64,000 bases of DNA from Candidatus Dormibacteria bacterium (GTDB lineage: Bacteria; Chloroflexota; Dormibacteria; DASZGP01), in the NCBI GenBank assembly GCA_050998755.1, contig JBPCPW010000085.1:19672-83671 (forward strand). Direction: 5' to 3'. Both the position numbers and the translations under genes were made by a program. The notes beneath the pieces are model-generated. The model was not told where the DNA came from and made no database searches. It saw nothing but the letters and a program-made list of their open reading frames with translations. Of this stretch, positions 7,614 to 25,499 are shown piece by piece (the first letter of the stretch is position 1; each line of letters starts with the position of its first letter).

Positions 7614-8567
7614 TTAGAACTTCCAGCGCTTCTTCTTCTCGCCGCCGGCGTCAGGAGCGGGCGCTGCGCCCGGCATCGGCGCCGGTGCGGGCATGCCGCC
7701 GGGCGTCGGCGAACCACCCGAGGGCGCCGGGAACGGGGCCTGTTGGTGGGGCTGCGCGAAGGCCGTGGCGCCGGCGGAAGGGGCTGGCACCGCCTGCACC
7801 GCGACGGCCAGGCGGTAGCTGATCCCGGCGCAGCGGTTGCAGACCATCAGTCCGTCCTCGCGCTCGGGGAGGCAGTCAACACAGAAGGGCTCGAGGCAAC
7901 CGGGGCAGAGGCCCACCGCCGGCAGGTGAGAGTGGTTGGAGCAGGCGGTATAGGCCTCAACCGGCTCTGGTGGGGCCGCCGCGGCCGCCACGGCCGGCTC
8001 CGGCTCAATTGCCGGCTCAAGCTCCTGCGCCGGCTCAGGCTCCTGCGCCGGCTCCGGGAGCGCCATGGGCTGGTCAGACTGGGTCGGCTCCTCGCCGGAA
8101 GGGGGCGCGAAGACGGCGGTTTCCGAGGGGTCAGCCGCCGGCGGGGCCACCATGGTCTCCTCGGCCATGGGTCCGGCGATCATGGTCTCTTCGGGGGCCG
8201 CCTCCGGCACTTCGGGCGGCCACTCGGCCTTGACGCCCTCGGGCCACTCGGCCTCGCGCACGAAGGTCATGGTCACCGCGCCGAATGCGACCTCATCGCC
8301 GTCCTTCAGCTGGCGGTCAACCTGGTGCACCAGGCGCTCGCCATTCACCGTCGAGCCGTTGGTCGAGCCGACGTCTCGGATGGAGATGACCCCATGCTCA
8401 TAGCTCAGTTCGGCCTGGCGCCGGGATACGCTGCGCTCCTGGTCGAGGGTGCCAAGGTCCACGTCGGGGACCATGTTGGTGATGCGGTCCTTGCGGCCCA
8501 CCGAGTTGGTGACCTTGTTCAGCGGGAAGTTGAGCTGGCCAAAGGCCAGTGCGGGTCCGGTGGCCAT
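7614..8567 (-). CDS. FHA domain protein with acidic Pro-rich linker and C-terminal Cys/His zinc-binding module
   Basis: FHA pattern: VGRKDRI...SVSRRQAELSYEHGVISIRDVGSTNGSTVNGERL. ATG at 8567 is preceded by AGGAGGGA. Zinc module CxxH-x8-CxxC-x4-CxxC-x10-CxxC lies at nt 7830-7943. Confidence 0.85.
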   Translation of the reverse strand: MATGPALAFGQLNFPLNKVTNSVGRKDRITNMVPDVDLGTLDQERSVSRRQAELSYEHGVISIRDVGSTNGSTVNGERLVHQVDRQLKDGDEVAFGAVTMTFVREAEWPEGVKAEWPPEVPEAAPEETMIAGPMAEETMVAPPAADPSETAVFAPPSGEEPTQSDQPMALPEPAQEPEPAQELEPAIEPEPAVAAAAAPPEPVEAYTACSNHSHLPAVGLCPGCLEPFCVDCLPEREDGLMVCNRCAGISYRLAVAVQAVPAPSAGATAFAQPHQQAPFPAPSGGSPTPGGMPAPAPMPGAAPAPDAGGEKKKRWKF

Positions 8568-8601
8568 GGCTAGTCCCTCCTGATTTGTGACACAGGCTGC
8601 A

Positions 8602-9384
8602 TTATGGCGCAGGGGTCGGTGGTGAGACCTTGATGGCCGCACCGAAGTCGCTGAAGTCAATCTGGATCAGCCCGCTGCCGAGCGCCCCGGAGCGGGGGTC
8701 AATGTCCTCGGCCACCAGGCGCCCAGAGGCCTGGTCCACGTACATTACGATCGCCGCCGGCGAGGCGGCATCTCCTGCGCCCGCTGCCAGGGACGCGGTG
8801 TATTTCTCCGTCGTGAGCCCGTTGCGGTCGCCGGGCCCCGCATCGGCGAACCCTGTCGACTTCGAGAGGTAGCCGAGGTACGCCTGCGGGCCGGACGGGG
8901 GGGCGTTGGCGACGGGCTTCCAGGCCTCCTGGCCGGAACGCGTGACCGTGACCCCGTCATACGTCACTGTTTCGGTTGTCGCGTAATGCTGCGGCAGCGT
9001 CACGCTGGTCAACACGCGAGAGCGCGTGGCTGATTCGCTGTCGCCGCTGGACACGATCGCGGCCTTCTGGCCGTTGGTGGCGCCCGAGAACTCGGCGTTG
9101 AGGCGAAAGCGGAAGGACCCGCTTTCGGCGGTCTTCCGCGCCGCGGCGAGTACGGCCTGCGCCGCCGGGCTGGCATCTTTGATCTCCAGCGGCCCGCTGG
9201 GTGGAGGGGCGATGGCTGCCAGGGGTGCCACGGGGCCGGTGGCCGCCGAACCGCTCGACGACGCTTGAGGCGTTGGGCCGGCATCGGTCGTGGGCGCTGC
9301 GCTGTCGCAGGCCGTCAACAGTCCCGCGACCACTGTCAGCAGCAGCCAGCTTCCCTGCCGGCGTGAGTGATCGATCAGGCTCAA
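8602..9384 (-). CDS. Putative lipoprotein (possible LolA/LppX-like fold)
   Basis: Lipobox LLTAC follows a hydrophobic segment. TTG start overlaps the upstream stop (TTGA). The fold assignment is only a guess from FRFRLNAEFSG-type strands. Confidence 0.55.
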   Translation of the reverse strand: MSLIDHSRRQGSWLLLTVVAGLLTACDSAAPTTDAGPTPQASSSGSAATGPVAPLAAIAPPPSGPLEIKDASPAAQAVLAAARKTAESGSFRFRLNAEFSGATNGQKAAIVSSGDSESATRSRVLTSVTLPQHYATTETVTYDGVTVTRSGQEAWKPVANAPPSGPQAYLGYLSKSTGFADAGPGDRNGLTTEKYTASLAAGAGDAASPAAIVMYVDQASGRLVAEDIDPRSGALGSGLIQIDFSDFGAAIKVSPPTPAP

Positions 9385-9899
9385 GAGTGGGGATTCTGCA
9401 CGATGTAGGTCACGCCGGTTACATCCTCGGTGCGGAAGGCCTCCACCTGTACGGTCTCCGCGCCCTTGACGAAGACCGCTTGCCAGAGCGCATCCGACAC
9501 TGGATGAGGGGAGGCGGGGGCGGCGAGCGATTTCCAGCCACTTGCCGCCAGGGTGGTCTCCAACTCGCGGCGAACCTCGGCGACCCCGGTGTGTTCGGCG
9601 TAGATAACGGTCACCACCGGCCCCTTGTCCAGGTAGTAGCTGCGTGTCGCGCCGCGGGGGCGAGGTAGCCCGGCGACGTCTGAGCCGGGAACGTCGCGGT
9701 CCGGGACCCGCGTCAGGGCCTGGTTGATGTTCGGCGCAGCTGAGCTCTCGACCGCGGGCGGGGGCGACTGCGCCAGGTAGACCATGGCGACGACAACCAG
9801 CACCACAACCCCGGCGGCCACGGCGACACCAGCTCCCCCGCTGCCCTTGCGGCGTGGACGAGCCGGGGTAACAGCGCGCCGGGTACGAGCCCTAGCCAT
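9381..9899 (-). CDS. Single-pass membrane protein, hypothetical
   Basis: A basic N-terminus is followed by the TM helix GVAVAAGVVVLVVVAMVYL. It lies 24 nt downstream of the last tad pseudopilin gene. Confidence 0.5.
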   Translation of the reverse strand: MARARTRRAVTPARPRRKGSGGAGVAVAAGVVVLVVVAMVYLAQSPPPAVESSAAPNINQALTRVPDRDVPGSDVAGLPRPRGATRSYYLDKGPVVTVIYAEHTGVAEVRRELETTLAASGWKSLAAPASPHPVSDALWQAVFVKGAETVQVEAFRTEDVTGVTYIVQNPHS

Positions 9900-9923
9900 C
9901 CTGGGGCTGCGTGCGGGGTGGCC

Positions 9924-10496
9924 TCAGCAGATCTGGGCCTGGGACTTGCTGAAGGGGAACCAGGTTTCGGTGTACTTGGAGTAGTTGAGGACGTATTTGA
10001 TCGGCATGCTGAACCCGGCGGAGAAGCCCGGGTCGTAGTTGTAAGTGATCTTCATCGTCCCCAGTCCGGTGTTGAGGTGGGAGAGAACATCCCCGATTGG
10101 CCCGCTGGCCAGGCTTCCGAAGCCCTTGAAGATCGCACTGTGGTTGCCGGGCTCCAGCCCCGGAGGGAAGTTGCCGGAGTCGTACTTCCACTGCGGCGTG
10201 GTTCCGGGTGTGCAGACGATGCTGTTCTTGCCGTCGATGCTGTTATCCATCATGTGGGCGCTGGCGCGAATCCAGTCGAGGAGCTGGGGCTCGTTCATCT
10301 GAAAGGAGTCCGTGCCAGCGGGGTTGAGGCGGTCGATCGCGGCCATCTTGCTGGCCTCGGACACGCTCTCCTGGACGATGGCGGCGTCGTAGGCCGCCTT
10401 CCCCAGGCTGAGCGACCCCACGAACATCAGCGCCAGCAGCGGCATCGTCATGGCAAACTCGATCAGCGACTGTCCACGCTGGTTGCGGCACCTCAT
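9924..10496 (-). CDS. TadE-like pseudopilin
   Basis: N-terminus MRCRNQRGQSLIEFAMTMPLLALMFVG (TadE N-terminal motif). The ATG overlaps the TadG stop (ATGA at 10493-10496). The ORF-track extension to 10904 was rejected. Confidence 0.75.
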   Translation of the reverse strand: MRCRNQRGQSLIEFAMTMPLLALMFVGSLSLGKAAYDAAIVQESVSEASKMAAIDRLNPAGTDSFQMNEPQLLDWIRASAHMMDNSIDGKNSIVCTPGTTPQWKYDSGNFPPGLEPGNHSAIFKGFGSLASGPIGDVLSHLNTGLGTMKITYNYDPGFSAGFSMPIKYVLNYSKYTETWFPFSKSQAQIC

Positions 10497-12736
10497 TTCT
10501 TGGGCCCATTGCAGGTCGATACGTCCTGGAACCCGGACAGATTCTTGGTGTCGGAGACCGTGTTCAGCATCTTGTCCCAGTTGCTGCTGCTGATGTTCTT
10601 GACCTTGGCCTTGGCCTGGACGACGTAGCCGGCAATGTTGGCTACCTCCGACACCGCCGGGACGCAGGCCACCGAGACCAGGGCGATGTGCCAGTTGCGG
10701 GCGTCCGGGGGCTGGGGGCCGAGCACGTAGTCCACCAGCTTGGCGATGATGGTGGCAAACCAACAGAACGGACAGATGGTGCCCAGGAAGCCGAGGTCGA
10801 TCTTGAAGGCCCGTAGCGGATTGATGATGTTGTCGTAGAAGAACGAGTGGATCGCCGTGTAGATGGCGACGATGCTGTCGAAGAACCCCAGTAACACCCA
10901 GCACCAGCCAAACACCGAAGCGGGAAGGGTGTTGATCAGGGGAATCGGACCGCCAATCCTCTCGTAGACCGCGCCGCCGCTCTGGTCTCGCATGTTCTTG
11001 CCGTCGTCGGTCTTGGCAAAGTCGCAGAGGTCGGCCACCATGAGTCGGTCCTTTGTGCTGTCGGCTCGGTGCACGATCGCCTTGCTGGCGGTGATCGCAT
11101 AATCTGCGGTCGGGCCGTCCTTCCTGCCGGCCGCGTGGTAGGCCAACTGCTGCATGTAGCTCGGCTCGATCTCGCTGACCTCAAGAAAGTCCTGCACCAC
11201 GTCCTTGGTCTGCGCGTCAGCCCCCATGACGCTGGCTGGATGGTCGAACTTCTTCCACTCCGCCAGTGAGTTGACCAGGTTTCCCGCGTCGTCGGTGGGC
11301 TCGCCCGGCGGTTCCACCTCATCTCGATAAGTTGAGGTGTCGCGGTAGTCGACCGGGAGCTTGGGGTCGAGCGGGCCGGTTTTGACCAGCTGGGCGTGAT
11401 CTTTGTCCCATCCCCAGAACGCCCAGCAGGGGTTGGGGTCGGGTGTCGGCAAGGGGGGATTTGCCTTGGGGTCGGGGGGCGGAGGCGTCTTGCAGGCATC
11501 CGGGGCGTCGGCGTGGAACTGGCCGTCACATTTGAAGCCGAATTGCGTTGGTTGGCCGCTCGGCGCGACCTTGTTGGGATCCTTGGGGCAGTGGTTCAGC
11601 GGGGCGTCCGTGGGCTTGTAGCCATCGATCTTGGCGATGAAGTCTTTGACCTTCTGGTCCACGGTCTCGCCGCCAGTGTCCACCGCGATGTGGCGGAGGG
11701 ACGCCTCGGCGTCGTCCATCGCCTTCAGGGCATCGGTTTTGTCCTGGTCGCTTCCGTCAAACCGCTCCGGGCTGTCAGCCTCCTGCTTCTGGTTGATGTT
11801 GACCTTGATGCGCAGCTCATGGATCGCCTGGATCTGCTCGAAGTACCACGCCTGGACCTGCTCCTTGAACCACAGCCGCTCGTCACACTGCCGGTGCCAC
11901 TGCGTGCCTGTGGCGTCTGCCGGGGGAGTCAGGGGGTCGGTCCAGGCGGGCGGCGACGTGCACCCGGGTGTGTCCGGCCAGAGGTGGAAGGTGTCGCGGT
12001 CGGCCGATCCGCCACCGCGCAGCTCCTGGGTGGAAACCGGGCACGCCGGCTTGCCGGGCTGGCCGCAGTCCGATGCTGGTGGCGGCGTCTTGCCGCTGCC
12101 GCCCCAGATGTTGTGGAGTGCGCCCCAGTAGATCTGCGGTATCAGCGCCGGGGTGGCCTTGTCGTGGGCCTTGTCCGAGATCTGCAGGGCGTGTTCGGTG
12201 ATCGCCTGGATGTCCGCGAGGTTGTACTTGGTGACCGCCGCCTGGTCCAGGAAGTTGGTGGGCAGGATGAAGCCGATGTAGCCGTTGTTGGCCGCCACCA
12301 TGGTCGCGTTTATCGTTGCTAACACCTGTTTAGCGGCATTGAGGAGCTTGTTTATCGACTTCTTGATGTTGGCGAACGCCTTTTGGGCAGTTTTGGCTAT
12401 GTTTTTTATTACGTTGGCCACGGCTTGTATCACCGCTCCGAAGACGGACCCGACGTAGGGGATGGCGGAGATCGCCCGCCCGATCTGCAGCAACATCGAG
12501 GCCAGGCGCTGGATGAAGCCAAGGCCCCAGTCGATGAGGTCGAAGACCACCTCGTCGTTGATCACCGCGATGTAGGTCTCGGCCGCGGTTATCGCGGCGC
12601 CATCGCTGGCGGCCTGCATGCGCGTGGCCTGGCTGGTCTGGTTCCCGATGCCGGTGGCCATCACCACGACCATCACCATCAGCAGCGACGTCATGGCGGT
12701 GATCAGGGTGACGTTGCCGCGCTGCGGGTTCAGCAT
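10493..12736 (-). CDS. Giant TadG-like pilus-associated protein (747 aa) with C-terminal hydrophobic/Cys-rich region
   Basis: N-terminus MLNPQRGNVTLITAMTSLLMVMVVVMATGIGN...MQAASDGAAITAAE resembles the TadG N-terminal domain. The ATG at 12736 overlaps the upstream stop by 1 nt (TGATG). Confidence 0.7.
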   Translation of the reverse strand: MLNPQRGNVTLITAMTSLLMVMVVVMATGIGNQTSQATRMQAASDGAAITAAETYIAVINDEVVFDLIDWGLGFIQRLASMLLQIGRAISAIPYVGSVFGAVIQAVANVIKNIAKTAQKAFANIKKSINKLLNAAKQVLATINATMVAANNGYIGFILPTNFLDQAAVTKYNLADIQAITEHALQISDKAHDKATPALIPQIYWGALHNIWGGSGKTPPPASDCGQPGKPACPVSTQELRGGGSADRDTFHLWPDTPGCTSPPAWTDPLTPPADATGTQWHRQCDERLWFKEQVQAWYFEQIQAIHELRIKVNINQKQEADSPERFDGSDQDKTDALKAMDDAEASLRHIAVDTGGETVDQKVKDFIAKIDGYKPTDAPLNHCPKDPNKVAPSGQPTQFGFKCDGQFHADAPDACKTPPPPDPKANPPLPTPDPNPCWAFWGWDKDHAQLVKTGPLDPKLPVDYRDTSTYRDEVEPPGEPTDDAGNLVNSLAEWKKFDHPASVMGADAQTKDVVQDFLEVSEIEPSYMQQLAYHAAGRKDGPTADYAITASKAIVHRADSTKDRLMVADLCDFAKTDDGKNMRDQSGGAVYERIGGPIPLINTLPASVFGWCWVLLGFFDSIVAIYTAIHSFFYDNIINPLRAFKIDLGFLGTICPFCWFATIIAKLVDYVLGPQPPDARNWHIALVSVACVPAVSEVANIAGYVVQAKAKVKNISSSNWDKMLNTVSDTKNLSGFQDVSTCNGPKK

Positions 12737-13296
12737 CAGCAGTTCTGGTCCGGTGTCGGCACGCAGGACGGGGGAGGTTCGTACTGGTTGGCCAGCCGCG
12801 CCGCGACGCCGGTCTCCTGGAATGTCCCCAGCCTCGAGCCGTAGATCGAGGTGAGAACCTCCCATCCGGGAATCGTTGGGTGATAGGAGATGGTCACCGA
12901 TACCGCCATGTTGCAATAGAACTCGGTGTCCCCGATCTTGGGACCGGTGCTGACTCTCACCACGGTGGGCTTGGAGGCCATGCTCCGCATCATCGGCGAA
13001 TTCTGGTATTCGAGAGCGAGCACCGCCTCGGCGGAGGCCTTGGTGCCATTCTGGGCCGAGATGTCAGTTGGCGGACAGCCGCTGACCAGGTCCTTGGTGA
13101 GGTCGTGATTCTCCTTGGCGACGTGCCGCGCGGCATCGTAGGCCGCCTTCTGCTCCTGGATCCGCACCGAATAGAGAAGGCTGGCCGCGATGGTGATGAA
13201 GATGATCGCGATCAGTAGCGGCAGCACCAGCGCGAACTCGACCATCGCCTGGCCGCCGGCCTCACGCTGACCCCGCGGGCGGTGTGGGTGCGTCAT
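12736..13296 (-). CDS. TadE-like pseudopilin
   Basis: RGQREAGGQAMVEFALVLPLLIAIIFITIAASLLY. The start overlaps the flp stop (ATGA at 13293-13296). Confidence 0.8.
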   Translation of the reverse strand: MTHPHRPRGQREAGGQAMVEFALVLPLLIAIIFITIAASLLYSVRIQEQKAAYDAARHVAKENHDLTKDLVSGCPPTDISAQNGTKASAEAVLALEYQNSPMMRSMASKPTVVRVSTGPKIGDTEFYCNMAVSVTISYHPTIPGWEVLTSIYGSRLGTFQETGVAARLANQYEPPPSCVPTPDQNC

Positions 13297-13538
13297 TGGA
13301 GTGGGAGCTGCTGGTTGAACGTCTTGGTCAGCTTGAGGATCGCCTCTGGGCTGACTTCGTCGGGCAGCAATTGGATGTTGTAGGTGCTCTGGGCGTTGTC
13401 GATGTAGTGGAGGAACACGTCCGAGAACCCCATTTGACTAGCTGCGGCAAAGGCGACCACCACGGTGGCGCTGATCAGCGAGTACTCAAGCATCGCCTGT
13501 CCGCCCTGCTTGCGCAGACGGCGCGGGATCCCCTTCAC
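13293..13538 (-). CDS. flp: Flp/Fap family type IVb pilin precursor
   Basis: RKQGGQAMLEYSLISATVVVAFAAA carries the Flp G/xxxxEY processing motif followed by a hydrophobic helix. 81 aa. The GTG start overlaps the tadC stop (GTGA). Confidence 0.75.
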   Translation of the reverse strand: MKGIPRRLRKQGGQAMLEYSLISATVVVAFAAASQMGFSDVFLHYIDNAQSTYNIQLLPDEVSPEAILKLTKTFNQQLPLQ

Positions 13539-14419: not shown

Positions 14420-14421
14420 CT

Positions 14422-15366
14422 CTAAGACTCGATCTGCTTGAGGATTCGCTTGGTGGCGAGCCGGCTGATGTAGTTCATGCCCAGCGAGATGATGATCACC
14501 ACGATGCCGACCACGGTGGTGAACAGCGGCGTGATGAATTTCGGTGTGATGAGGTAGATGAGCAGGACGAAGAACACCGGCAGGTAGGAGACGACGGTCG
14601 CCGTCGAGCGAACCTGGGATGTGACCGCCTCCAGCTCGCTGCGTCCGCGGATCTCATCCTGGATCGAGGAGGACAGGCTGCGCAGCAACCCGTAGGTCTC
14701 AAGTCCGACCTGCTGCCCGATCGCCAGGGCACTGGCGATGGTGTGCAGCTCTGGGTACGGCAGCCGCTCCGCCCAGATCTCAAACGCCTCGGCCTCGCTG
14801 ACCCGGAGCGCTGAGATGCGGTTGGCCAGCGCGATCAGCTCGCCCTTGATGGGGTCGGCCAGGTTGGGGGTGGTGGCCTCCAGGGCGTTGACGAAGTTGC
14901 GCCCTGCTGCCATGCCGCTGCTAACCAGCAGCAGCGCGTTTGGCAGCTGCAGCAGGAACTTGGCCCGGTATGCGCGCGCCCGCCGAAGGGAGAGCGAGTA
15001 GTCGATGGCAGGGCCCGCGAGCCCGACGATGATCGCCAGCACCGGGGTGTGGAAGATCACAAAGGCCATACCCAGCGCGATCAGGAAGATGGACACCTGC
15101 CGATCGAGGAACGGGCCCCACTGGAAGTCGGCTCCGACGTCGACTGGGCGGCGGTAGCGTTGCATGAACCCGGTGCCGCTCAGCGGCGAGAGCAGGCGCT
15201 CGGTCGGGCTGATATACCGTGCCGCCTCCGCCTCGGCCGCGCCGCCGCTGCCACCCGTGTGGGCCGCGTACGGGTTGGCCTTCGATGACCGCATCACCGG
15301 CAGGATCATGCTGATCACCAGGTAGACGAAGCCGATCCCCGCCAGCACCAGCCCGACGGTTGTCAT
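14422..15366 (-). CDS. tadB: Tad pilus inner-membrane platform protein TadB-like (T2SS F-type domain)
   Basis: [24 protein letters not shown] plus a T2SSF-like core. The ATG overlaps the cpaF stop (ATGA at 15363-15366). The ORF-track extension to 15762 was rejected. Confidence 0.78.
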
Positions 15367-18306: not shown

Positions 18307-20174
18307 GTGGCCCCGAATCCTGCGCAGGCCCAGTACATCGGCTGCTCCGAGGAGAGGGTGTGCTGACCTGCGCCGTCAGTCCAGGACAGGGTGTAGGTGG
18401 CGCTTCCGTATACCGGGTTCATGGTGCGCGTGAACCCGGGCTGCGACTGCGGGGCCGAGGCCGTCGCGCCGTGCGTTCCCGCGGTCCCCGCGCGGATCGT
18501 GTCACTGACGTGGCCGCCGGATACCCTGGCCCCGTTCGCCCAGTTTATTGCCCACGTTATGGTCACCGGGATGTCGCCGGTGGATGGGTTGCTGAAGTCG
18601 TACTGCTCGGCGATGCTCCAACCACCGTCGAAGGTACAGTCCATGCCCCGACTGGACGGGTAGGCGGTGGACTGGCTGTAGTAGGGCTGGCCGTCGCTGT
18701 AAAACCCGCAAGTCAGGGTGGGGCTGGGCGTGCTGTAGTCAGAAGTGCACTGATCGTAATAGACGCGCTGGTTGCTGATATTGAGGGGGGCGGCCGGGTA
18801 CTTGTTGGCGATGATCACGAACGTGTGGCTGGGCGAAGGTACCGGGCGGGCGGCGATCGACCGCTGGGGGCTGGGGACGGTGGGGTTGGCGCTCGGTGCG
18901 TTGGCGCTCGGGGTGATGCCGGTCGGGCCGCCGGACGTCGGGGATGGCTCCGGACTGACCGAGGGGGCGGTCTCGGGGGAAGTGCTGGGGGTGACCTGAG
19001 GCGACGGTTTCGGCGTCGGGGAGGCCAAGGCAACCGCCCCGTTGGACGCCCGCGCGGACCCGCCGCCATTTGTGCTGTTGCCACCGGCGCTGCTCTTGTT
19101 GTGGAGCGCGAGGTAGCCACCGCCCACCGCCAGGACGGCAACCAGAGCGGCGCCGGCGATCCAGGCGCTGGCCCCCATCACCCCGCCGCTGCCCGCCGCC
19201 GCACCCGCAGCGCTGGCCACCGCGGCGGTGCCCACCGCGCCGGCCGCCGCCAGGCCACCGGCGGTGGCCAGCATCGCCAGCAGTCCCATACCGGCGCCGA
19301 CGGTCGCAGCGACCTTCTTCTTCACTGAGGAACGCTTCTCCCAGTCGGCGCCGTAGGCTTCGACCGCCGCGGCCTCCAGTGCGGTCAGCATCGCTTCAGC
19401 GCTCTGCGGCCGGTCGGCGGGGTCCTTGGCCAGGCCGCCCGCAAGCAGGCCGGTCATGGCGGGGCCGAGTTTGGGGTTGACGGTGTGCGCGTCCGGTACC
19501 GGAGCTTCCCGCTGCATCCGCATCACAGCGAGTGGGTTGTCAGCCACAAACGGCGGCCGCCCGGTAAGCAGTTCGAAGAGCACCGCACCGGCGGAGTAGA
19601 GGTCTGAACGCGCGTCCAGGGTGCCGCCGCCAACCATCTCCGGGCTCATGTAGGCAGGGCTACCTGCCGGCATGCCGCCGGCGGCCCCGGGCCCCGACTG
19701 GCTCGCAGCCTGGCCGAAGTCAGCCAGCTTGCTCACTCCCTCACCGTCCAGGAGCACGTTCTCAGGCTTGATGTCGCGGTGGATCAGGCCGAGGCTGTGG
19801 GCGTGTGCCAGTCCCTGCAGGGCACCCTTGATGACGCCCAGGGATTCCTCGGGGGTCAGCTCGCCGGAGTGCTGGACAAGTCCGCGAAGCGACGCACCTT
19901 CGATCAGCTCGCTGACCAGGTAGTCGTTCTTCTCACGCTGGAAGAAGTCGAAGACCCGCACGCAGTGGTCGTTGTCGAGGCGGGCCATGATCTCTGCCTC
20001 GGCGCGGAAACGCTCGCGGAAGACAGGGTCGGCGGTGAGCTCGGTGCTCAGCTCCTTGAGCGCCACCCGGCGATCGACGAATTCCTGGTAGGCGAGGTAA
20101 ACGGTGCCTGATGCACCGCGGCCCAGGACGCCCCGGACCTGGTAGTCGCCGATGTTGCTGGGAAGCGAAGACAA
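18303..20174 (-). CDS. Transmembrane Ser/Thr protein kinase (Hanks type) with Cys-containing extracellular domain
   Basis: Kinase motifs: [31 protein letters not shown] and [10 protein letters not shown] helix AWIAGAALVAVLAVGGGYLAL is followed by a Ser/Pro-rich linker and a roughly 180-aa ectodomain. Confidence 0.95.
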   Translation of the reverse strand: MSSLPSNIGDYQVRGVLGRGASGTVYLAYQEFVDRRVALKELSTELTADPVFRERFRAEAEIMARLDNDHCVRVFDFFQREKNDYLVSELIEGASLRGLVQHSGELTPEESLGVIKGALQGLAHAHSLGLIHRDIKPENVLLDGEGVSKLADFGQAASQSGPGAAGGMPAGSPAYMSPEMVGGGTLDARSDLYSAGAVLFELLTGRPPFVADNPLAVMRMQREAPVPDAHTVNPKLGPAMTGLLAGGLAKDPADRPQSAEAMLTALEAAAVEAYGADWEKRSSVKKKVAATVGAGMGLLAMLATAGGLAAAGAVGTAAVASAAGAAAGSGGVMGASAWIAGAALVAVLAVGGGYLALHNKSSAGGNSTNGGGSARASNGAVALASPTPKPSPQVTPSTSPETAPSVSPEPSPTSGGPTGITPSANAPSANPTVPSPQRSIAARPVPSPSHTFVIIANKYPAAPLNISNQRVYYDQCTSDYSTPSPTLTCGFYSDGQPYYSQSTAYPSSRGMDCTFDGGWSIAEQYDFSNPSTGDIPVTITWAINWANGARVSGGHVSDTIRAGTAGTHGATASAPQSQPGFTRTMNPVYGSATYTLSWTDGAGQHTLSSEQPMYWACAGFGAT

Positions 20175-20233: not shown

Positions 20234-21460
20234 CTACTTCTTGCCCGCGGCGCCCCCGACGCCGAGGAAGGTGGCCAGGCCGGCGACCGCTTTGCCCACG
20301 CCCGAGCTCGCGACCTTGGCATAGGGCTCGTGCTTTTCGACGAAGCCTTCCATGAACTTCTTGTCGTCGGGGATGGTCGCGGCGACGGCCACGGGCATGG
20401 GCACCTCCAGCTTCTTCTTGCTGCTGCGGTTGACCACCAGGAAGCAGCGGTCCTGCACCCGCAGGTCGCGGGCCTCGATCATCGGCCCCAGCACCAGGTT
20501 GAGCATCCGTGCCACCTTGATCTGGCTGGGGATGTCATCGGGGGTGACGACCAGGATGCGGTCGGACTGGAACAGCGCCGGGGCGGTGAACATGTCGACG
20601 GTGTTGGGCAGGTCGAGCACCACCACGTCGAAGTTGTTGGCCAGGATCTGGACCAGGGCTTCCATGTGAGTGGAAGGGTCGGCGTAGTCGTCGATGGCTG
20701 CTGGGTCGTCAAGGGCGCAGAGGATGTACAGGTTGTCCTTGCGGTAGCACTTGTTGAGCAGGATCTCCTCTGAGATCACCGCGCCGGCCTCCGCCGGGAC
20801 CCGTTCCATCTTGCCCTCGGCACGCACCAGGATCTCATCAACCAGCGGTTTCAGGCCGAGGACGCTGGACCGCTTCATCTCGGTGACGTCGAAGAAGTAG
20901 GACTGGCTGCCGTTCTGCAGGTCGAGGTCGACCAGGAGAACCCGAAGTGAGGCATCCTGGGCGATCTTCGAGGCCAGCGCGGCCGCCAGCAGGCTGGTGC
21001 CGGACCCACCGCGAGGGCTGTAGCAGGCAAACACCTGGCCCTTGCCACCGGACTTCCGCGGCTGCACCGCGTCGAGCTGGCCGGGGGCGGACAGCACGGG
21101 CATGCTGGGCATCGAGGATTGGGCCGGCGGGGTCGGTGCGAGGGGCGTTTCCATCGGTGACGCCATGGGGCTACCCATAGGCCCGGGTGCGGGGAAGCCC
21201 CCGGTGCCGTCAGATGGCGCGTCTGGCATCGGACTCGGCTCAAAGGAGGGTGCCGGGAAGGCAGGCGCGTCCAGCACCGCCGGCCCGGCGCTCCCGGTGG
21301 GCTCGCCCACCAGGCGGTAGGGGAACCGGGCGCTGTGGGCCTGCGCCGACTCGAGGTTGAGGAAGGCCGCCATGACCTGGTTGCCGGCGGAGGCCTGCTC
21401 GCTCACGATGCGCGTGAGTCGGGCGCGGTTGGGTGAATAGGCGACGACCTTGTCGGTCAT
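20234..21460 (-). CDS. TadZ/CpaE-like ParA/MinD-fold protein with degenerate Walker A
   Basis: VFACYSPRGGSGTSLLAAALA...VLLVDLDLQNGS fits the CpaE/TadZ ATPase-like core. RGGSGTS replaces KGGxGK[ST]. An N-terminal domain of about 55 aa and a Pro-rich linker precede it. Confidence 0.7.
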   Translation of the reverse strand: MTDKVVAYSPNRARLTRIVSEQASAGNQVMAAFLNLESAQAHSARFPYRLVGEPTGSAGPAVLDAPAFPAPSFEPSPMPDAPSDGTGGFPAPGPMGSPMASPMETPLAPTPPAQSSMPSMPVLSAPGQLDAVQPRKSGGKGQVFACYSPRGGSGTSLLAAALASKIAQDASLRVLLVDLDLQNGSQSYFFDVTEMKRSSVLGLKPLVDEILVRAEGKMERVPAEAGAVISEEILLNKCYRKDNLYILCALDDPAAIDDYADPSTHMEALVQILANNFDVVVLDLPNTVDMFTAPALFQSDRILVVTPDDIPSQIKVARMLNLVLGPMIEARDLRVQDRCFLVVNRSSKKKLEVPMPVAVAATIPDDKKFMEGFVEKHEPYAKVASSGVGKAVAGLATFLGVGGAAGKK

Positions 21461-21482: not shown

Positions 21483-23255
21483 TTAGGGGCAGCGATACTG
21501 TACGCCCGCGGCGTTGGAATCGAGCGCGGTCGGCTTCAGAACCTTGAGGTGGGCGGCACCGCTGGTGCTGCCGTTGCCGGTGTAGGTGAACTGCAGCGCG
21601 ACGTCAAGCTCCTTCTGGCCGCTCTGCACGTTCTGGATGGTATCGGGGCCTGCCGCCGGCGTTCCGTCGGGCTGGATCCAGTGGTAGGTGATATCCCCGG
21701 AGCCTCCGTTGAGCAGGATCTTGCCGATGAATTTGTACTGGGCCTGGGGGCAATGGCCAACAGCGGGGTCGGCAGCGACCTGCACGCCGGTGACGACGAC
21801 CGCCGGGCCCGATGTCCGCACCACGAAGTACCAGAACGCGGCGGCGGCAAGCAGCGCGAGGATCAGCACGAGGACCAGGGCGCGCAACAGGCGCGCCGCG
21901 AACCCCCGGCCCTGTTTGGTTTTCGGCGGCGTGTAGACGGGCGCCTGGACCACCGGCATGGAGAATGCCGGTAGTGCTGGGAGCGGTGCCGCGGCCGGAT
22001 GCGCGGCCGGCGGGGGCACGAACGACGGCGCGCCCGTCGGCTGACCGGCGTGGATCGACTGGGGTGGTTGGATCACTGTCGAGTCACCCCCGACCGGGGC
22101 TCCGTGCACCATGGTCTCGTCACCCATCGGCTGGACCATTGTCGCGTCGGGAGCGGCGCCGATCGCCATGGTGTCGTCGGGCGAGGCGGACGGCCGGACC
22201 ATCGTCTCCTCGCTGCCCGCCATCAGGGCCGTCGTGTCGATTGGCGAGATAGTCCACTGCGGGGGATCCGGCGGCAGCGGGGTGGCGCCGGCGACCGAGG
22301 TGGCGGCAGGTAGTGGAGCAGTCGGTACGGTCTGGGTTGCCCCCGCTTCCTGCGCGACCGCCTGCGGCGAAGGGGGGGCAAGCGCGGCCGCGATCACCGA
22401 GAGGTCGGACTCTCCCGCCCACCCGGGCCAGGACTTCTGCGCGGCGTCGGCCAGCTTGACCCAGAAATCGCCCGCGCTCTTGGGCCTTTTCTTGGGGTCC
22501 TTGGCCAGGCCGGCGAGCAACACGTCCTCCACCTTGGATGGAAAGCCGGGGACCAACTGGCTGGGCCGCGGCGGCGGCGTGGAGATGTGGGCTTCGACGC
22601 TGGCCATGACGTTTCCAGGCACCGGCGGGAAGGGCAGCCTGCCCACCAGCATCTCGAAGCTCATGACCGCGAGGGAATACACATCGGCGCGCTGGTCGAT
22701 CTCCGCCGCGCCCGCGGCCTGCTCCGGGGACATGTACGACGGCGTGCCCAGGATGGTGCCCACCTGGGTCACAAAATTGCCCTGGCCCCCCATCATCTTG
22801 ACCAGCCCGAAGTCGCCGAGCTTGCACATGCCGGTGGTGGTCACGAAGATATTGCCGGGCTTCAGGTCACGGTGGAGGATGCCCTGCTTGGAGGCGTATT
22901 CCAGCGCCGCTGCCACTTCGCTGATAACCCGCAGGGACTGCCCGGTGGTCAGTTTGTTGCCCGTCATGACCGCCTTGAGTGAGGGGCCATGGACGTACTC
23001 CTGGACCATGTAGAGGTCGCTGCCGACGGCCTCCAGGTTGTAGATGCCGACCACGTTGGGGTGGTTCATCTTGGCCAGCGCGCGGGCCTCGCGACGGAAG
23101 CGCTCCAGGGCCTGGGGGTCGCCGTTCCACGCGCCGAGCACCTGCTTGATGGCGACAAAGCGGTTGAGGGCGGTCTGCCGGGCGAGGTACACCGAGCCCA
23201 TGGCGCCCTTGCCCACGGCCTGGATGAACTCGTACCCGGCGAGGTTGTTACTCAC
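21483..23255 (-). CDS. Transmembrane Ser/Thr protein kinase (Hanks type)
   Basis: Kinase motifs: GKGAMGSVY, VAIKQV, HRDLKPGNIFV, DFGLVK and TPSYMSPE. TM helix LVLVLILALLAAAAFWYFVV is followed by a roughly 110-aa ectodomain ending in RCP. Confidence 0.95.
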   Translation of the reverse strand: MSNNLAGYEFIQAVGKGAMGSVYLARQTALNRFVAIKQVLGAWNGDPQALERFRREARALAKMNHPNVVGIYNLEAVGSDLYMVQEYVHGPSLKAVMTGNKLTTGQSLRVISEVAAALEYASKQGILHRDLKPGNIFVTTTGMCKLGDFGLVKMMGGQGNFVTQVGTILGTPSYMSPEQAAGAAEIDQRADVYSLAVMSFEMLVGRLPFPPVPGNVMASVEAHISTPPPRPSQLVPGFPSKVEDVLLAGLAKDPKKRPKSAGDFWVKLADAAQKSWPGWAGESDLSVIAAALAPPSPQAVAQEAGATQTVPTAPLPAATSVAGATPLPPDPPQWTISPIDTTALMAGSEETMVRPSASPDDTMAIGAAPDATMVQPMGDETMVHGAPVGGDSTVIQPPQSIHAGQPTGAPSFVPPPAAHPAAAPLPALPAFSMPVVQAPVYTPPKTKQGRGFAARLLRALVLVLILALLAAAAFWYFVVRTSGPAVVVTGVQVAADPAVGHCPQAQYKFIGKILLNGGSGDITYHWIQPDGTPAAGPDTIQNVQSGQKELDVALQFTYTGNGSTSGAAHLKVLKPTALDSNAAGVQYRCP

Positions 23256-23292
23256 GGTTCAGAAGTATGGGGCCGCCCGCGAAGTTGCTTTC

Positions 23293-24993
23293 TCAGCAGA
23301 CCCACTGGACGGGCGTTAGCGCCATCGTGTGTTGCGTGGTGTCCGTCCAGTCGAGCGTGAAGAAGATCGTGCCGAGCGCCTGGTAATTGAAATTGGCGGT
23401 CGTGACCGGGCTGAACTGCGTCGGTCCGTTGCCGGGCGCCCCAGCGTAGCTTCGGCCGGGCGGCTGCACGTAGTACTGATAGGAGGCGGGAGACGGGACG
23501 ATTTTCTGGGGGGTCGGCCTTTGCTGGGTCACTGTCCACTGGACATGGACCAAGACTGGATTGCTTCCGGAAACGTAGGCATACCGGAACGTTTCCTGCG
23601 CAACGAAATAGCTACCGGGGAAGCATGTGCCCCCGTTGGCTGCCGACCCCGGTGTATATGGTCTGCAGGTAGGGGTGGCTCCCGGGACGCAGAACTGCAT
23701 GGCTATGCCAAGGGTAGAGACATTCATGTTGGTCGGCGGGGGCGGGGGCGGCGGGTTGGTCTGTGTAGGAGTCGGCTGCACCGTCCGGGTCGGGCTTGGG
23801 GACGGCGTCGGTGCCGCTGATGGCGACGGCGACGGCGACGGGGATGGCGAAGGCGAGGGGCTGGCGTCAGGCGTCGGCGACGGGGTGTCGGTTGGGCTGG
23901 GGGTTGGCGCCGACGACGGGCTCGGTGTTGCCACCACGACGGCAACACCGCCCTTGTTGTTCCCCCCGAACAGCCCGCTGGCGAAGCCGAACACGATGAA
24001 CCCGAGGAGGGCGATGCCCGCTATCCCACCGGCGATCAGCCATTTGCTGACGCCGCCCACCGCGGCCTCTCCAACCGCCCCCGTTGCCGCTGCGGCGCTG
24101 GCGGCGCCGACCAGCAGCAGGCCGAGGGCGGCCATCGTCGCCTCGACCAGGCGCTTGATCGAGGAGCGCTTCTCCCAGTCCGCGCCGTAGCCCGCGACCG
24201 CGGCGGCCTCCAGCTCGTCGAGGAACTGCTCGGCGGTGCGTTGGCGATCCCCGGGGTTCTTGGCCATCGCCCGGCTCACCAGGCCGCTGACCTCGGGTGG
24301 CAGGTCGCTGTTCAACGATCGCGGGTCCGGAACGGGGTCGTTGAGCTGCTTGCGCATCACCGCCAGCGGGTTGTCCCCGGTGTAGGGCGCCCGGCCGGTG
24401 AAGAACTCGAAGAGCACCGCCCCCAGCGCGTAGATGTCCGTACGCAGGTCGACCAGCCCCCCGGAGATCATCTCCGGGCTCATGTACGCCGGGCTGCCGG
24501 CGGGCATGCCTCCGGCCGCCCCGGGACCGCTCGCCACCAGGGCCTGCCCGAAGTCCGCCAGCTTGCTCACGCCCTGGGTGTCGGCCAGCATGTTCTCGGG
24601 CTTGATGTCGCGATGGATGAGCCCCTTGCCGTGGGCGTATGCCAGGCCGCTCAGCGCCCCCTTGAGAACGCCCAGCGATTGCTCGGGGCTGAGGTGACCG
24701 GCGTGATCCAGCACCTGGCGCAGCGATGCCCCACGAACGTACTCGCTGACCAGCACGGCGCGCCCGCCCTCCTCGAAGAAGTCCCAGACCTTGACACAGT
24801 TGGGATCGTCCAGCGACGCCATGATCCGGGCCTCGGCCCGGAAGCGCTCGATGAAGGTGGGGTCCAGGGCCAGCGCCGGCGCCAGCTCCTTGAGCGCCAC
24901 CTCGCGATCCAGCGCGATCTCTCGCGCCAGGTAAACGGTCCCCGTGGCCCCCGTCCCCAGGGTGCCGAGAACCTCGTAGTTTTCAGCCTTCAA
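23293..24993 (-). CDS. Transmembrane Ser/Thr protein kinase (Hanks type), paralogue of 18303-20174
   Basis: Kinase motifs: [32 protein letters not shown] and [11 protein letters not shown] start overlaps the GNAT stop (TTGA). A TM helix, a (Ser-Pro)n linker and an ectodomain ending in WVC follow. Confidence 0.95.
23818..23860. repeat. In-frame hexanucleotide repeat GGCGA(C/A/T) encoding (Ser-Pro)n linker on the minus strand
   Basis: tgatggcgacggcgacggcgacggggatggcgaaggcgagggg. The protein reads [15 protein letters not shown]. Confidence 0.85.
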
Positions 24994-25499
24994 TCGCGGA
25001 GGTCTGAGGAGGTGCGCTTCATCATCAGGATCCCGGTGGTCCGGAAGCCGTGGCGCTCCTGGTAGAAGCGGATGGCGTCAAGGTTGGCGACATGCGTCTG
25101 CATCGTCATCACGGCTGCACCGTGCTGAGCCGCCCAGGCCTCGGCCGCGGCCACCAACCGCGAGCCGACGCCATGTCCGCGGTGTTGCGGCAGCACCGCG
25201 ATGTCGATCTCCACCGAAACCGCGTCACGCATCATGCGCGGCTGCCCGGTGGCCGGCCGCAATTGCATGTCGATCCAGCCCACGACCTCACCGTCCATCT
25301 CCGCGACCAGGATCTCCTCGTCGTCCGGGAGCGGCAGGCGCCGGCTGTAGCGTTCCTTCATAGCCCGGTAATCGGGGGTCGAATAGAGGCTGGGGTCGAG
25401 GCGTATGTGGTGTTCGGCACTGGCCTGGTAGATGTCCGCCAGGGCACCGACGTCGTCGGGGGTCGCTGCGCGGATCGTGACGTCTGCGGTTCGTTCCAT
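24990..25499 (-). CDS. GNAT family N-acetyltransferase
   Basis: [24 protein letters not shown] is the acetyl-CoA binding motif A. Confidence 0.9.

Follow-up and report, generated by a model that had tools for sequence, protein, structure and literature searches.

Organization of the gene block

We examined a gene block at positions 7614-25499 of a 64 kb stretch of DNA (the window) from Candidatus Dormibacteria, an uncultured soil bacterium of the phylum Dormibacterota. The block was single, co-directional and on the minus strand, with 16 genes (Table 1) and without a convincing terminator, and is read 5' to 3' in the order GNAT, STK1, STK2, TadZ, STK3, surface protein, TadA, TadB, TadC, Flp, TadE, TadG, TadE, membrane protein, lipoprotein and FHA protein. 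The genes named by the first-pass annotation were recovered at their coordinates and strand by ORF, start-codon and Pfam analysis; its count of 17 coding sequences was not, as 16 were found, the number in its own gene list. Start-codon analysis also returned the eight start/stop overlaps that it had reported (GNAT/STK1, STK3/surface protein, TadA/TadB, TadC/Flp, Flp/TadE, TadE/TadG, TadG/TadE and membrane protein/lipoprotein), including the GTGA at 18306-18303 where the STK3 stop overlaps the surface-protein start; the intergenic gaps were 2-100 nt. The proposed check for strong internal terminators yielded none in the block: the minus-strand scan returned one weak terminator-like site only, within tadG, and the 100-nt gap 5' of tadA was without unusual structure (z = 0.9).

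Table 1. Features of the block and of the neighbouring divergent kinase gene, with window coordinates.
Feature	Position	Strand	Evidence or note
GNAT acetyltransferase	24990..25499	-	Pfam Acetyltransf_1 2.7e-21; first gene of block
STK1, Hanks Ser/Thr kinase	23293..24993	-	Pkinase 7.4e-47
STK2, core Hanks kinase	21483..23255	-	Pkinase 5.1e-48
STK2 juxtamembrane repeats EETMV, DDTMA, DATMV, DETMV, DSTVI	22071..22223	-	candidate phospho-acceptor and FHA-docking sites
TadZ/CpaE-like ParA/MinD ATPase	20234..21460	-	Pfam AAA_31/CbiA/ParA
STK3, Hanks kinase between tadZ and tadA	18303..20174	-	Pkinase 3.6e-49
Choice-of-anchor Q / CSLREA surface protein, 524 aa	16732..18306	-	NF041518 and TIGR04214
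TadA/CpaF secretion ATPase	15363..16631	-	T2SSE 3.7e-60
TadB platform protein	14422..15366	-	T2SSF 24.8 bits, slightly under 25.2 cut-off
TadC platform protein	13535..14419	-	T2SSF 25.5 bits
Flp-type prepilin	13293..13538	-	motif G/xxxxEY
TadE-like pseudopilin 1	12736..13296	-	PF07811 1.8e-12
TadG-like large pseudopilin or tip protein	10493..12736	-	PF13400 22.9 bits
TadE-like pseudopilin 2	9924..10496	-	PF07811 2.8e-07
Single-pass membrane protein, 172 aa	9381..9899	-	TM segment aa 25-43
Lipoprotein	8602..9384	-	lipobox LLTAC
FHA + B-box-like zinc-finger protein	7614..8567	-	FHA 2.4e-13; last operon gene
FHA linker repeats EETMI / EETMV / SETAVFAPP	8100..8200	-	alignment
Zinc module C-x2-H-x-H-x6-C-x2-C-x4-C-x2-C-x10-C-x2-C	7782..7970	-	7-8 invariant Cys/His
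STK4, fourth Hanks kinase	26746..28389	+	Pkinase 8.7e-50

Profile-HMM searches backed most of the gene calls through Pfam; Flp, without a match in Pfam or NCBIfam, was called by motif from a leader ending in KQGG followed by QAMLEYSLISA, such that MKGIPRRLRKQGG/QAMLEYSLISA matches G/xxxxEY. TadA had no fused FHA domain, and its nearest NCBIfam model was the actinobacterial-type TadA (TIGR03819; 313 bits, under its 373 cut-off). TadB had five hydrophobic segments and was kept in all relatives; the 747-aa TadG had a TIGR03816 Rv3654c-type N-terminus. The small membrane protein was found in every Dormibacteria locus reaching that position, at 31-43% identity (tblastn), and the lipoprotein gene in most relatives. 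The surface protein, earlier described as a beta-helix protein, agrees with a choice-of-anchor Q / CSLREA assignment (NF041518, 61.3 bits with a cut-off of 25; TIGR04214, 20.8 bits), and both its ends are hydrophobic, a signal/anchor at the N-terminus and an anchor at the C-terminus.

The TadZ P-loop was SPRGGSGTS in alignment; the lysine is absent, as had been reported, and the sequence with R in its place fits the published Walker A consensus of TadZ, K/RGGXGXS/T (bioRxiv 10.64898/2026.07.08.737194). All that is left of the N-terminal receiver-like domain is a mini-domain of 52 aa (beta-alpha-beta-alpha-beta), and a Pro/Ala-rich disordered linker of about 70 aa comes next (AF2 model pLDDT 93-96 at aa 1-52, and <50 at aa 57-127), and Foldseek matched the model to ParA/MinD/FlhG with TMt up to 0.80. 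The best NCBIfam model for TadZ was TIGR03815, "septum site-determining protein Ssd", and in Actinobacteria division is well known to be under STK/FHA control; the protein might thus be an Ssd-like septum-site protein, with kinases and FHA protein acting as do PknB/FhaA/FhaB in division or dormancy control, and the tad neighbours historical. We consider this very unlikely, as the score of 49 bits was far under the 154 cut-off, the gene occupies the canonical tadZ place before tadA-tadB-tadC (with a variable kinase and/or surface-protein gene between tadZ and tadA in some lineages), in all loci the FHA gene comes after the pseudopilin genes, and no division genes lie nearby.

Kinases, FHA protein and a shared threonine motif

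The catalytic motifs of all the kinases were intact (G-loop, VAIK Lys, HRD, DFG and SPE), and each had hydrophobic segments C-terminal to the kinase domain. STK2 is laid out as a kinase domain, a disordered linker with DETMV repeats, a transmembrane segment (aa 461-479) and an ectodomain of about 110 aa with two Cys. STK1 has one or two hydrophobic segments after the kinase domain, then a stalk rich in Pro/Ser/Thr and a C-terminal ectodomain that contains Cys and Trp; it is a paralog of STK3 and STK4 (55-63% identity between kinase domains). STK4 is divergent and lies one gene past the block, outside the coordinates of the first-pass annotation. No PP2C-type phosphatase was found within the window, so that an "off" step is missing, which counts against the phosphorylation switch proposed below.

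The start of the FHA gene is more likely ATG 8567 than TTG 8660, because an AGGAGG ribosome-binding site is found there. From the N-terminus, the protein comprises the FHA domain, the EWPEGVEAEWPPE motif, EETM[IV]/ETAVFAP repeats, an acidic linker, the zinc module and an invariant C-terminal tail, EKKKxWPF. The domain retains the phosphothreonine-binding Arg, Ser and Asn, within residues invariant in the alignment (G24-R25, S48-R49, N70-G71), and the closest solved FHA domains, by PDB sequence and by fold of the AF2 model, were those of GarA, OdhI, Rv0020c and DgcB; of these, GarA, OdhI and DgcB are phospho-switch proteins, and the DgcB domain was solved with the protein's own phospho-tail bound. 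The zinc module is lineage-restricted (20 representative clusters of 1.84 billion match at E<=1e-3) and almost confined to this FHA/Zn family; three relatives matched Pfam zf-B_box, two over the cut-off and one slightly under. B-boxes mostly make protein-protein contacts rather than bind DNA.

The motif [DE]-E-T-M/A-V/I ("DETMV") is repeated in the disordered cytoplasmic linkers of STK2 and the FHA protein, with one copy in the TadZ linker in some lineages, and so links these proteins. In a six-frame translation of the 64 kb window (ORFs of 60 aa or more; 90,911 aa in total), the five matches fell in the STK2 linker (three) and the FHA protein (two). Six-frame ORFs from nine loci (260,908 aa) gave 43 matches to [DE]ET[MALV][VIM], all in STK2, FHA or TadZ orthologs; STK2 orthologs bore 3-9 copies, and the motif was absent from the STK1/3/4 paralogs. 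This common motif in kinase and FHA protein suggests that the pilus machine may be switched by threonine phosphorylation. Two observations count against this: in L090, the deepest relative with DNA, STK2 has D[DE]T[VI][VI] repeats and the FHA protein no motif repeats, and the pT+3 residue, the usual position of FHA specificity, varies in the motif.

Conservation beside the pilus genes

Related loci (n = 11) ranged from 95% down to 74% in TadA identity, with lowest identities of 56% for TadZ, 48% for STK2 and about 45-50% for FHA; the sample is small, about 11 loci from one phylum and several from the same study. A Hanks kinase was found 5' of tadZ/tadA, and the FHA/Zn gene at the operon end, in each related locus whose contig extends that far (kinase first and FHA last in the window, L001, L002, L005, L081, L082, L083, L088, L089, L090 and L093; L003 has the STK2 tail, TadZ and FHA). 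The kinase and FHA genes, whose conservation beside tad genes had been proposed as a check, were thus kept in every locus of sufficient length, despite changed flanks: L081/L082 are flanked by sulfate-assimilation genes, the window block and L088 by SDR/enolase genes. STK2 orthologs adjoin tadZ on its 5' side in L001, L002, L003 (tail only), L005, L081, L082, L083 and L090. In the reverse direction, FHA/Zn homologs (38 clusters) were 3'-terminal in tad operons in both of the two contigs looked up, and the TadZ and FHA match lists share ten long contigs. One case counts against the proposed switch: in the 8 kb locus P0126, where FHA is present, a non-kinase gene on the opposite strand lies directly upstream of tadZ, at the contig end.

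The conserved core is STK2-TadZ-TadA-TadB-TadC-Flp-TadE-TadG-TadE-membrane protein-(lipoprotein)-FHA/Zn protein, with one kinase, STK2, and the FHA protein; STK1, STK3, GNAT (only in the window, L001 and L002) and the surface protein (2/11 loci; the window and L001) are lineage-variable. Three kinases bracketing tadZ, as the first-pass annotation had it, hold for the window, but not as a general feature: STK1 and STK3 come and go between relatives (STK3, found in many, is missing from L003 and L081), so this arrangement is a lineage detail.

Dormibacteria may simply be rich in kinases, with kinase and FHA genes adjoining tad without a functional tie; the extra kinases (STK1/3/4) do differ in number and position between loci, with one on the opposite strand in L002, one interrupting the operon in L005 and one divergent in the window. 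This is nonetheless highly improbable: STK2 and FHA hold their exact positions in all sampled relatives though flanks change, about 104 kb of DNA around the Dormibacteria blocks was free of kinases while the blocks themselves held 23, the threonine motif is common to STK2, FHA and TadZ only, and the zinc module is almost exclusive to this FHA family. With the kinase HMM, about 150 tad loci from outside Dormibacteria gave no match within 10 kb of TadA; they belong to a set of 154 kinase-negative loci (2.5 Mb) that also contains L003 and L004, two Dormibacteria loci that are truncated.

A proposed phosphorylation switch and known systems

The most probable reading (about 0.6) takes the block for a Tad/Flp adhesion-pilus operon of the monoderm, actinobacterial type that has acquired a dedicated threonine-phosphorylation module; this module would act on the Tad machine as PpkA-Fha does on type VI secretion systems. 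The built-in phospho-signalling layer first suggested for this DNA is favoured by conservation, the lack of strong terminators and the shared motif, but its core is reduced to STK2 and the FHA protein. STK2 would sense an extracellular cue via its small two-Cys ectodomain, possibly assisted by the co-encoded membrane protein and lipoprotein, and would autophosphorylate its membrane-proximal DETMV threonines, forming a multivalent FHA docking site that would recruit the FHA protein to the membrane. There, more speculatively, the B-box-like zinc module and the invariant KKKWPF tail might engage TadZ and/or the TadA-TadB-TadC platform, and this engagement would turn pilus assembly on or off or set its position. 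Phosphorylated EETM repeats could close the FHA protein on itself (a GarA/OdhI-type switch) or, alternatively, link FHA molecules into head-to-tail chains. Extra, lineage-specific inputs may come from STK1, STK3 and STK4.

The kinases could instead set an FHA/Zn protein acting as an ArnA-like repressor or activator of flp/tad transcription or translation. ArnA, which with ArnB and the kinases ArnC/ArnD controls archaellum expression in Sulfolobus, has the same domain content, zinc finger and FHA (PMC6509490, PMC4858521); the IETT motifs repeated in ArnB are phosphorylated and read by ArnA (PMC6509490); P0250, a distant zinc-module relative, fuses vWA, FHA and B-box (the domain types of ArnA and ArnB); and the FHA gene is operon-terminal with its own strong ribosome-binding site. 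We regard expression control as unlikely, however. The zinc module resembles a B-box, and the locus encodes no vWA partner. ArnA has its domains in the opposite order and is similar in sequence within the FHA domain only, and type IV pilus loci never encode ArnA/ArnB (PMC4858521). The docking motif lies close to the membrane in the kinase linker and, in some lineages, in TadZ, which points to assembly on the machine.

The statement that FHA readers are absent from canonical tad loci was wrong: class III CpaF bears a fused FHA domain (PMC12019362), which we observed directly in Bordetella/Achromobacter loci, and the Tad-like Kil system of Myxococcus, a machine assembled on contact, has many FHA proteins (PMC8460266). 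As Kil is the best-studied FHA-rich Tad-like machine, the block could encode, rather than an adhesion pilus, a comparable contact-dependent device (effector, killing or secretion) that the kinase/FHA cascade would fire, with the choice-of-anchor Q protein as cargo or tip adhesin; the large TadG and the surface protein within the operon would fit, and a Kiritimatiellia locus (L092) unites a secretin, FHA-CpaF, two FHA proteins and a kinase. This too is very improbable, given that neither an FHA-fused ATPase nor a secretin is present, the surface protein occurs in only two of the 11 loci, and no toxin/effector domains were detected with Pfam or NCBIfam; it departs from the proposed Tad pilus switch in output only, the regulatory logic being the same.

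The likeness to the T6SS, which is activated when Fha binds phospho-TssL (PMC3953482), would lie in kinase/FHA control of a machine; the ArnB phosphosites, repeated and read by an FHA protein, are a second precedent for the proposed switch (PMC6509490). FHA domains in Tad-like systems were thus already known; what is new here is a putative threonine-phosphorylation module encoded within the operon.

Gene organization of the tad block

The tad block consisted of 16 consecutive minus-strand genes (one fewer than counted in the first-pass annotation), bounded on both sides by plus-strand genes. In order of transcription they encode a GNAT acetyltransferase, the Hanks kinases STK1 and STK2, TadZ, STK3 and a surface protein of the choice-of-anchor Q / CSLREA group, followed by TadA/CpaF, TadB, TadC, Flp, TadE, TadG, a second TadE, a single-pass membrane protein, a lipoprotein and the FHA protein; with minor corrections, this set of tad, kinase and FHA genes agreed with what had been read from the sequence, as judged by Pfam and NCBIfam models. 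Start-codon analysis gave eight start/stop overlaps, as previously claimed, and intergenic gaps of 2-100 nt. The sole terminator-like site on the coding strand was weak and lay within tadG, in agreement with a block free of strong internal terminators. The longest gap (100 nt, 5' of tadA) was searched for a structured RNA or terminator and no unusual fold was found; a sigma-70 promoter scan gave no match and is uninformative for this phylum. The block genes are likely co-transcribed.

Coordinates of features in the window and in loci from other contigs
Locus	Feature	Coordinates	Strand	Description
Window	SDR gene	6818-7588	+	One boundary of block
Window	tad block	7614-25499	-	G+C about 67%
Window	FHA gene start	8567	-	Most likely ATG, preceded by AGGAGG ribosome-binding site
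Window	Surface protein gene	16732-18306	-	C-terminal hydrophobic anchor, Arg-rich tail, LPRAG before anchor
Window	GTGA overlap	18306-18303	-	Kinase stop / surface protein start; real
Window	STK3 activation loop	19630-19720	-	Gly/Ala-rich, little or no Thr
Window	STK1 activation loop	24450-24550	-	Gly/Ala-rich, little or no Thr
Window	Aminotransferase gene	25542-26717	+	Other boundary of block
Window	STK4	26746-28389	+	Fourth Hanks kinase, 547 aa
Window	STK4 activation loop	27190-27270	+	Gly/Ala-rich, little or no Thr
Window	Two very large ORFs	31543-37436	-	924 and 1054 aa
Window	Response regulator and histidine kinase	56269-58349	-	OmpR-type; HAMP
Window	Satellite pseudopilin genes	~58400-62083	+	TadE-like (PF07811, 3.6e-13) and TadG-like (PF13400)
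L001	Second FHA-like ORF	870-1223	-	37% identity to window FHA domain
L005	Insertion between tadA and tadB	11248-15831		About 4.6 kb, with opposite-strand Hanks kinase
L092	Kiritimatiellia Tad-like cluster	3514-16038		Kinase, FHA and Tad genes

The ATPase (422 aa, without an FHA domain) was of the TadA/CpaF type (PF00437, 3.7e-60), with 46-58% identity to CpaF from many phyla. TadB and TadC, positioned after TadA and each with several TM segments, scored 24.8 and 25.5 bits with PF00482, around its cut-off of 25.2. Pseudopilins of the TadE/TadF/TadG kind were recognized with PF07811 (twice) and PF13400 (once), and the Flp prepilin, which the Pfam Flp_Fap model did not match, by its G/xxxxEY processing motif (KQGG/QAMLEY). 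The secretin RcpA and RcpC were absent from the locus, which fits a monoderm-type locus; both occurred in distant loci of the diderm type (L084, L086, L087 and L092). The ORFs scanned across the 64-kb window included neither a TadV/CpaA prepilin peptidase (Peptidase_A24) nor a PP2C-family phosphatase, and these two functions must have their genes elsewhere in the genome; TadV is commonly encoded away from the locus in monoderm tad systems. The surface protein was found only in the window and in L001, the locus of a relative, and is therefore accessory; it is possibly an adhesin. Elsewhere in the window, a satellite pseudopilin set adjoins a divergent response regulator and histidine kinase, and may form an alternative tip complex, or feed a two-component signal into the same pilus as a second input. 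Of the two very large ORFs, one (924 aa) had no family match; the other (1054 aa), with CarboxypepD_reg and Ig-like repeats, probably encodes a surface protein.

All block kinases had complete catalytic motifs, with hydrophobic segments after the kinase domain. STK2 comprises a kinase domain, a disordered linker, one TM helix and an ectodomain of ~110 aa with two conserved Cys. STK4, divergent in orientation and one gene upstream of the block, has a kinase domain 55-58% identical to its paralogs STK1 and STK3, and all four kinases of the 64-kb window fall within 18.3-28.4 kb; L002, a related locus, has a similar extra kinase on the opposite strand. The STK2 activation loop contains Thr (FVTQVGTILGTPSYMSPE), of which those of STK1, STK3 and STK4 have little or none, and judging by these loops activation probably differs between the two kinase types.

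The FHA protein stands alone, i.e., unfused to any Tad component. In its alignment (A2) the pThr-binding residues GR, SR and NG were invariant, as was a segment, EWPEGVEAEWPPE, after the FHA domain; there follow Thr repeats and an acidic linker that varies, then a zinc module whose Cys/His residues are invariant, and lastly the C-terminal tail EKKKxWPF, also invariant. At the level of sequence, these residues and the kinase motifs show that the kinases are competent for catalysis and the FHA domain for binding. In the AF2 model the FHA domain folded with confidence and the zinc module with moderate confidence, and the linker was disordered, which kept the whole-protein pTM at 0.36. Foldseek with this model matched only the FHA domain and did not place the zinc module by fold. 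The closest solved FHA domains were GarA, OdhI (by sequence the nearest of all, together with GarA; E = 4e-5), Rv0020c and, in complex with its own phospho-tail, DgcB. The zinc module has an extremely narrow distribution, with matches at E<=1e-3 in just 20 representative clusters among 1.84 billion; in three relatives the module matched Pfam zf-B_box (two above the cut-off, one just below), and for this reason we call it B-box-like. One relative, P0250 (544 aa), which came up solely through the similarity of its zinc finger to that of the window's FHA protein, has a vWA domain, an FHA domain and a B-box zinc finger fused in a single chain; in Sulfolobus these domain types are divided between ArnB and ArnA.

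TadZ had the ParA/MinD ATPase fold, with the P-loop SPRGG[SA]GTS in all Dormibacteria. Its N-terminal receiver-like domain was reduced to a 52-aa beta-alpha-beta-alpha-beta unit, very confident in the AF2 model, and was followed by a disordered Pro/Ala-rich linker of ~70 aa. A TadZ lacking the P-loop lysine had been singled out as novel, and this we withdraw: GT[ST] for GK[ST] is common in canonical TadZ, and since the published consensus, K/RGGXGXS/T, allows Arg at the first position (bioRxiv 10.64898/2026.07.08.737194), the R-for-K change in RGGSGTS is not unusual in itself. Loss or transfer of the receiver domain likewise has a precedent, in Bdellovibrio TadZA. A role for the block in cell division, exerted through TadZ acting as an Ssd-like protein, would be another reading of this protein; we regard it as highly improbable.

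Conservation and specificity of the kinase-tad linkage

By a TadA-based scan of genomes, the window was assigned to Candidatus Dormibacteria (phylum Dormiibacterota, kingdom Bacillati). Related loci came from species-representative genomes (L001-L005) or were reached through TadZ or FHA homologs (L081-L083, L088 and L089); L090 and L093 represent a deeper lineage (TadA 74-75%, TadZ 56%, STK2 48%). A scan of metagenome contigs added one relevant locus, L093, and 72 proteobacterial loci that served as extra negative controls. The comparative sample is small, and within it all relatives shared a common skeleton: an STK2-type kinase directly 5' of tadZ, then tadA-tadB-tadC-flp-pseudopilins, with the gene for the FHA protein and its zinc module last. 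L081 had the STK2-type kinase only, so that the GNAT, STK1, STK3 and surface protein genes are optional; in L003 tadZ was directly followed by tadA. Flanking genes varied (sulfate assimilation in L081 and L082, SDR/enolase in the window and L088), so the block itself forms the conserved unit. On an 8-kb contig with TadA at 69% identity, the FHA gene still closed the tad operon. The phospho-signalling layer proposed in the first-pass annotation thus held up in so far as its genes are conserved beside tad genes; its three kinases are a lineage detail. In L005 (TadA 82%), the operon is interrupted by an insertion carrying an opposite-strand kinase, and L001 has a second FHA-like ORF on the opposite strand just upstream of its GNAT gene.

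The four kinases of the window served to build an HMM, which was positive in only 11 of the 165 loci collected (ten Dormibacteria-type and one Kiritimatiellia). No Hanks kinase was detected with it within 10 kb of TadA in the other 154 loci (2.5 Mb), which were mostly proteobacterial but also included Acidobacteriota-type and Chloroflexi loci, as well as L003 and L004, which are truncated Dormibacteria loci. The kinase-negative result for proteobacterial loci was retained only after this re-test by HMM. An earlier 'no FHA' control, tblastn of proteobacterial tad loci with the FHA protein, was unreliable and was rejected because it missed FHA domains fused to CpaF in Bordetella and Achromobacter. 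These 75 loci (L006-L080, from Bordetella, Achromobacter and related bacteria) carry class III CpaF genes in which the N-terminal FHA fusion was seen directly; none has a Hanks kinase within 10 kb, and the kinase feeding their FHA domains, if any, is therefore unlinked.

The kinases and tad genes of Dormibacteria could be coincidental neighbours. The DNA flanking the Dormibacteria blocks (~104 kb, including 43 kb of the window) was kinase-free, compared to 23 kinases inside the blocks; kinase richness alone thus fails to explain the adjacency, and we consider coincidence most improbable.

Shared threonine repeats and the proposed phosphorylation module

The strongest new evidence, again read from sequence, is a Thr motif shared by proteins of the block. 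The disordered STK2 linker had 3-9 copies of (P)-D/E-E-T-M-V-(R/Q/H)-(P) across orthologs (EETMV, DDTMA, DATMV, DETMV and DSTVI in the window), and the FHA protein had 2-4 copies just past its FHA domain (EETMI, EETMV, SETAVFAPP); one copy, E-E/Q-T-A-V-F/Y-A-P, was present in the disordered TadZ linker in the L081/L082/L083 lineage. When the six-frame ORFs of nine loci (260,908 residues in total) were searched for [DE]ET[MALV][VIM], all 43 occurrences lay in STK2, FHA or TadZ orthologs. A related pattern occurred five times in the whole 64-kb window (six-frame ORFs of at least 60 aa), i.e., three times in STK2 and twice in the FHA protein, and the motif was absent from the paralogous kinases STK1, STK3 and STK4. 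Acidic-Thr-hydrophobic repeats set in disordered linkers beside an FHA domain match the expectation for phospho-acceptor and FHA-docking sites, and we take them as candidates for such sites. GarA's ETTS motif is one parallel. ArnB's IETT repeats are a published one (PMC6509490).

We place at about 60% the probability that the block equips this Tad machine with a phospho-Thr module dedicated to it; our confidence in each of the following steps is lower. STK2 would autophosphorylate its juxtamembrane repeats on an extracytoplasmic cue, in the sensing of which the co-encoded membrane protein and lipoprotein may join. The FHA protein would then dock on the phosphorylated STK2 repeats, and its zinc module and basic-aromatic tail would engage TadZ and/or the TadA/B/C platform, thereby licensing or positioning pilus assembly; the FHA protein, once phosphorylated on its own repeats, may become auto-inhibited or polymerise. 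In its fullest form, i.e., a phylum-wide, operon-encoded Thr-phosphorylation pathway of a monoderm Tad pilus in which the kinase autophosphorylates an array of DETMV sites that an FHA/B-box adaptor couples to TadZ/TadA, the proposal is tentative and falls somewhat short of even odds. Against the mechanism count the small sample of loci, the lack of a PP2C gene in the window, a pT+3 position that is not conserved within the motif, and L090, where D[DE]T[VI][VI] repeats were kept in STK2 and lost from the FHA protein.

If this is correct, it would be the first demonstrated case, to our knowledge, of a Hanks kinase gating a Tad system post-translationally. In many bacteria the colonisation of surfaces is driven by Tad pili. 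Transcription, c-di-GMP and polarity are the known modes of their control, and a kinase/FHA switch encoded within the operon would make a fourth. The combination of kinase, FHA protein and Tad genes is apparently undescribed, is conserved across the phylum and can be tested with peptides and recombinant domains. The DETMV motif offers concrete, cheap experiments for an uncultured phylum abundant in nutrient-poor soils, and a sequence signature for locating such modules elsewhere.

Comparison with known systems

Underlying the system is a tad locus of the monoderm, actinobacterial type. Its gene order (tadZ-tadA-tadB-tadC-flp-tadE) is that of Mycobacterium tuberculosis Rv3654c-Rv3660c, likewise without secretin or RcpC, and its nearest NCBIfam models were actinobacterial (TIGR03815, TIGR03819 and TIGR03816), all three scores being below the family cut-offs. 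The mini N-domain and long disordered linker of TadZ set it apart from the actinobacterial loci, and we know of no kinase or FHA gene inside an actinobacterial tad operon.

Other Tad-family machines are associated with FHA domains, and the novelty once claimed for FHA in a Tad system must be given up: class III CpaF carries a fused FHA domain (PMC12019362), the Tad-like Kil system of Myxococcus xanthus includes numerous FHA proteins (PMC8460266), both have been suggested to use phospho-signalling (PMC8460266, PMC12019362), and Bdellovibrio tad genes lie close to FHA genes. Those Kil and class III systems are diderm, with a secretin and with FHA fused to the ATPase; here the FHA protein is separate, the kinase is in the operon, and the fused CpaF and short secretin typical of Kil were not found. 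A contact-fired output like that of Kil would change the output of the proposed module and leave its regulatory logic as it is; we judge it very unlikely. A Hanks kinase within the operon is reported by none of the CpaF, Kil and Bdellovibrio papers (PMC12019362, PMC8460266); a literature search, incomplete in its reach and weak as evidence, found nothing relevant on such a kinase in a tad operon or on pili or kinases of Dormibacterota. The Kiritimatiellia locus L092, a diderm Tad-like cluster, encodes RcpC, secretin, FHA-fused CpaF, TadB, TadC, two further FHA proteins (one of 646 aa, and one of 790 aa with a double FHA domain) and a Hanks kinase bearing LRR_5 repeats. It resembles the Kil system, for which the Kil paper mentions no kinase (PMC8460266), and is an independent case of kinase, FHA and Tad together, which suggests that this coupling arose more than once. 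Homology at the level of the Thr repeats was rejected, the DETMV motif being absent from the Kiritimatiellia kinase and FHA proteins, and L092 is regarded as analogous.

The archaellum network of Sulfolobus places a type IV filament machine under the control of Hanks-type kinases and of a protein with FHA domain and zinc finger, which recognises repeated E-T phosphosites (PMC6509490, PMC5300886); its members are ArnA (zinc finger and FHA), ArnB (vWA), the kinases ArnC, ArnD and ArnS, and PP2A. ArnA and ArnB act on expression, and the ArnA/ArnB/ArnC/ArnD network lies outside pilus loci, neither ArnA nor ArnB ever being encoded in one (PMC4858521). ArnA has its zinc finger N-terminal and its FHA domain C-terminal and is paired with a vWA protein, whereas here the order is reversed and the cluster has no vWA gene; ArnA-like control of expression is an unlikely account of the block. 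GarA and OdhI share with the FHA protein a phosphorylatable ET-rich motif on the same polypeptide as the FHA domain, but regulate TCA-cycle enzymes, and have a single N-terminal ETTS motif and no zinc module.

By analogy, the mechanism proposed for the phospho-Thr module would follow the logic of the T6SS PpkA-Fha pathway (PMC3953482), represented by PpkA, PppA and Fha1 in Pseudomonas aeruginosa and by PpkA-TssL-Fha in Agrobacterium tumefaciens. Given the T6SS and T7SS precedents and the FHA-bearing Tad-like systems, the combination is not conceptually shocking. Differences from the T6SS are that the machine is a Tad pilus in a monoderm-lineage phylum, that the cluster lacks a PP2C phosphatase, that the FHA protein has a B-box-like zinc module and Thr repeats of its own, and that the docking sites appear to be on the kinase itself. 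In both, the cluster of an envelope nanomachine encodes a stand-alone FHA protein and a membrane-bound Hanks kinase that has an extracytoplasmic sensor, with an accessory lipoprotein and membrane proteins near the kinase; shared too, as proposed here, would be an FHA domain that reads pThr on a membrane component and so licenses assembly. If true, the block would have arrived independently at the logic that the T6SS and some T7SS use, and would extend licensing by a receptor kinase and FHA adaptor to the type IV filament superfamily.
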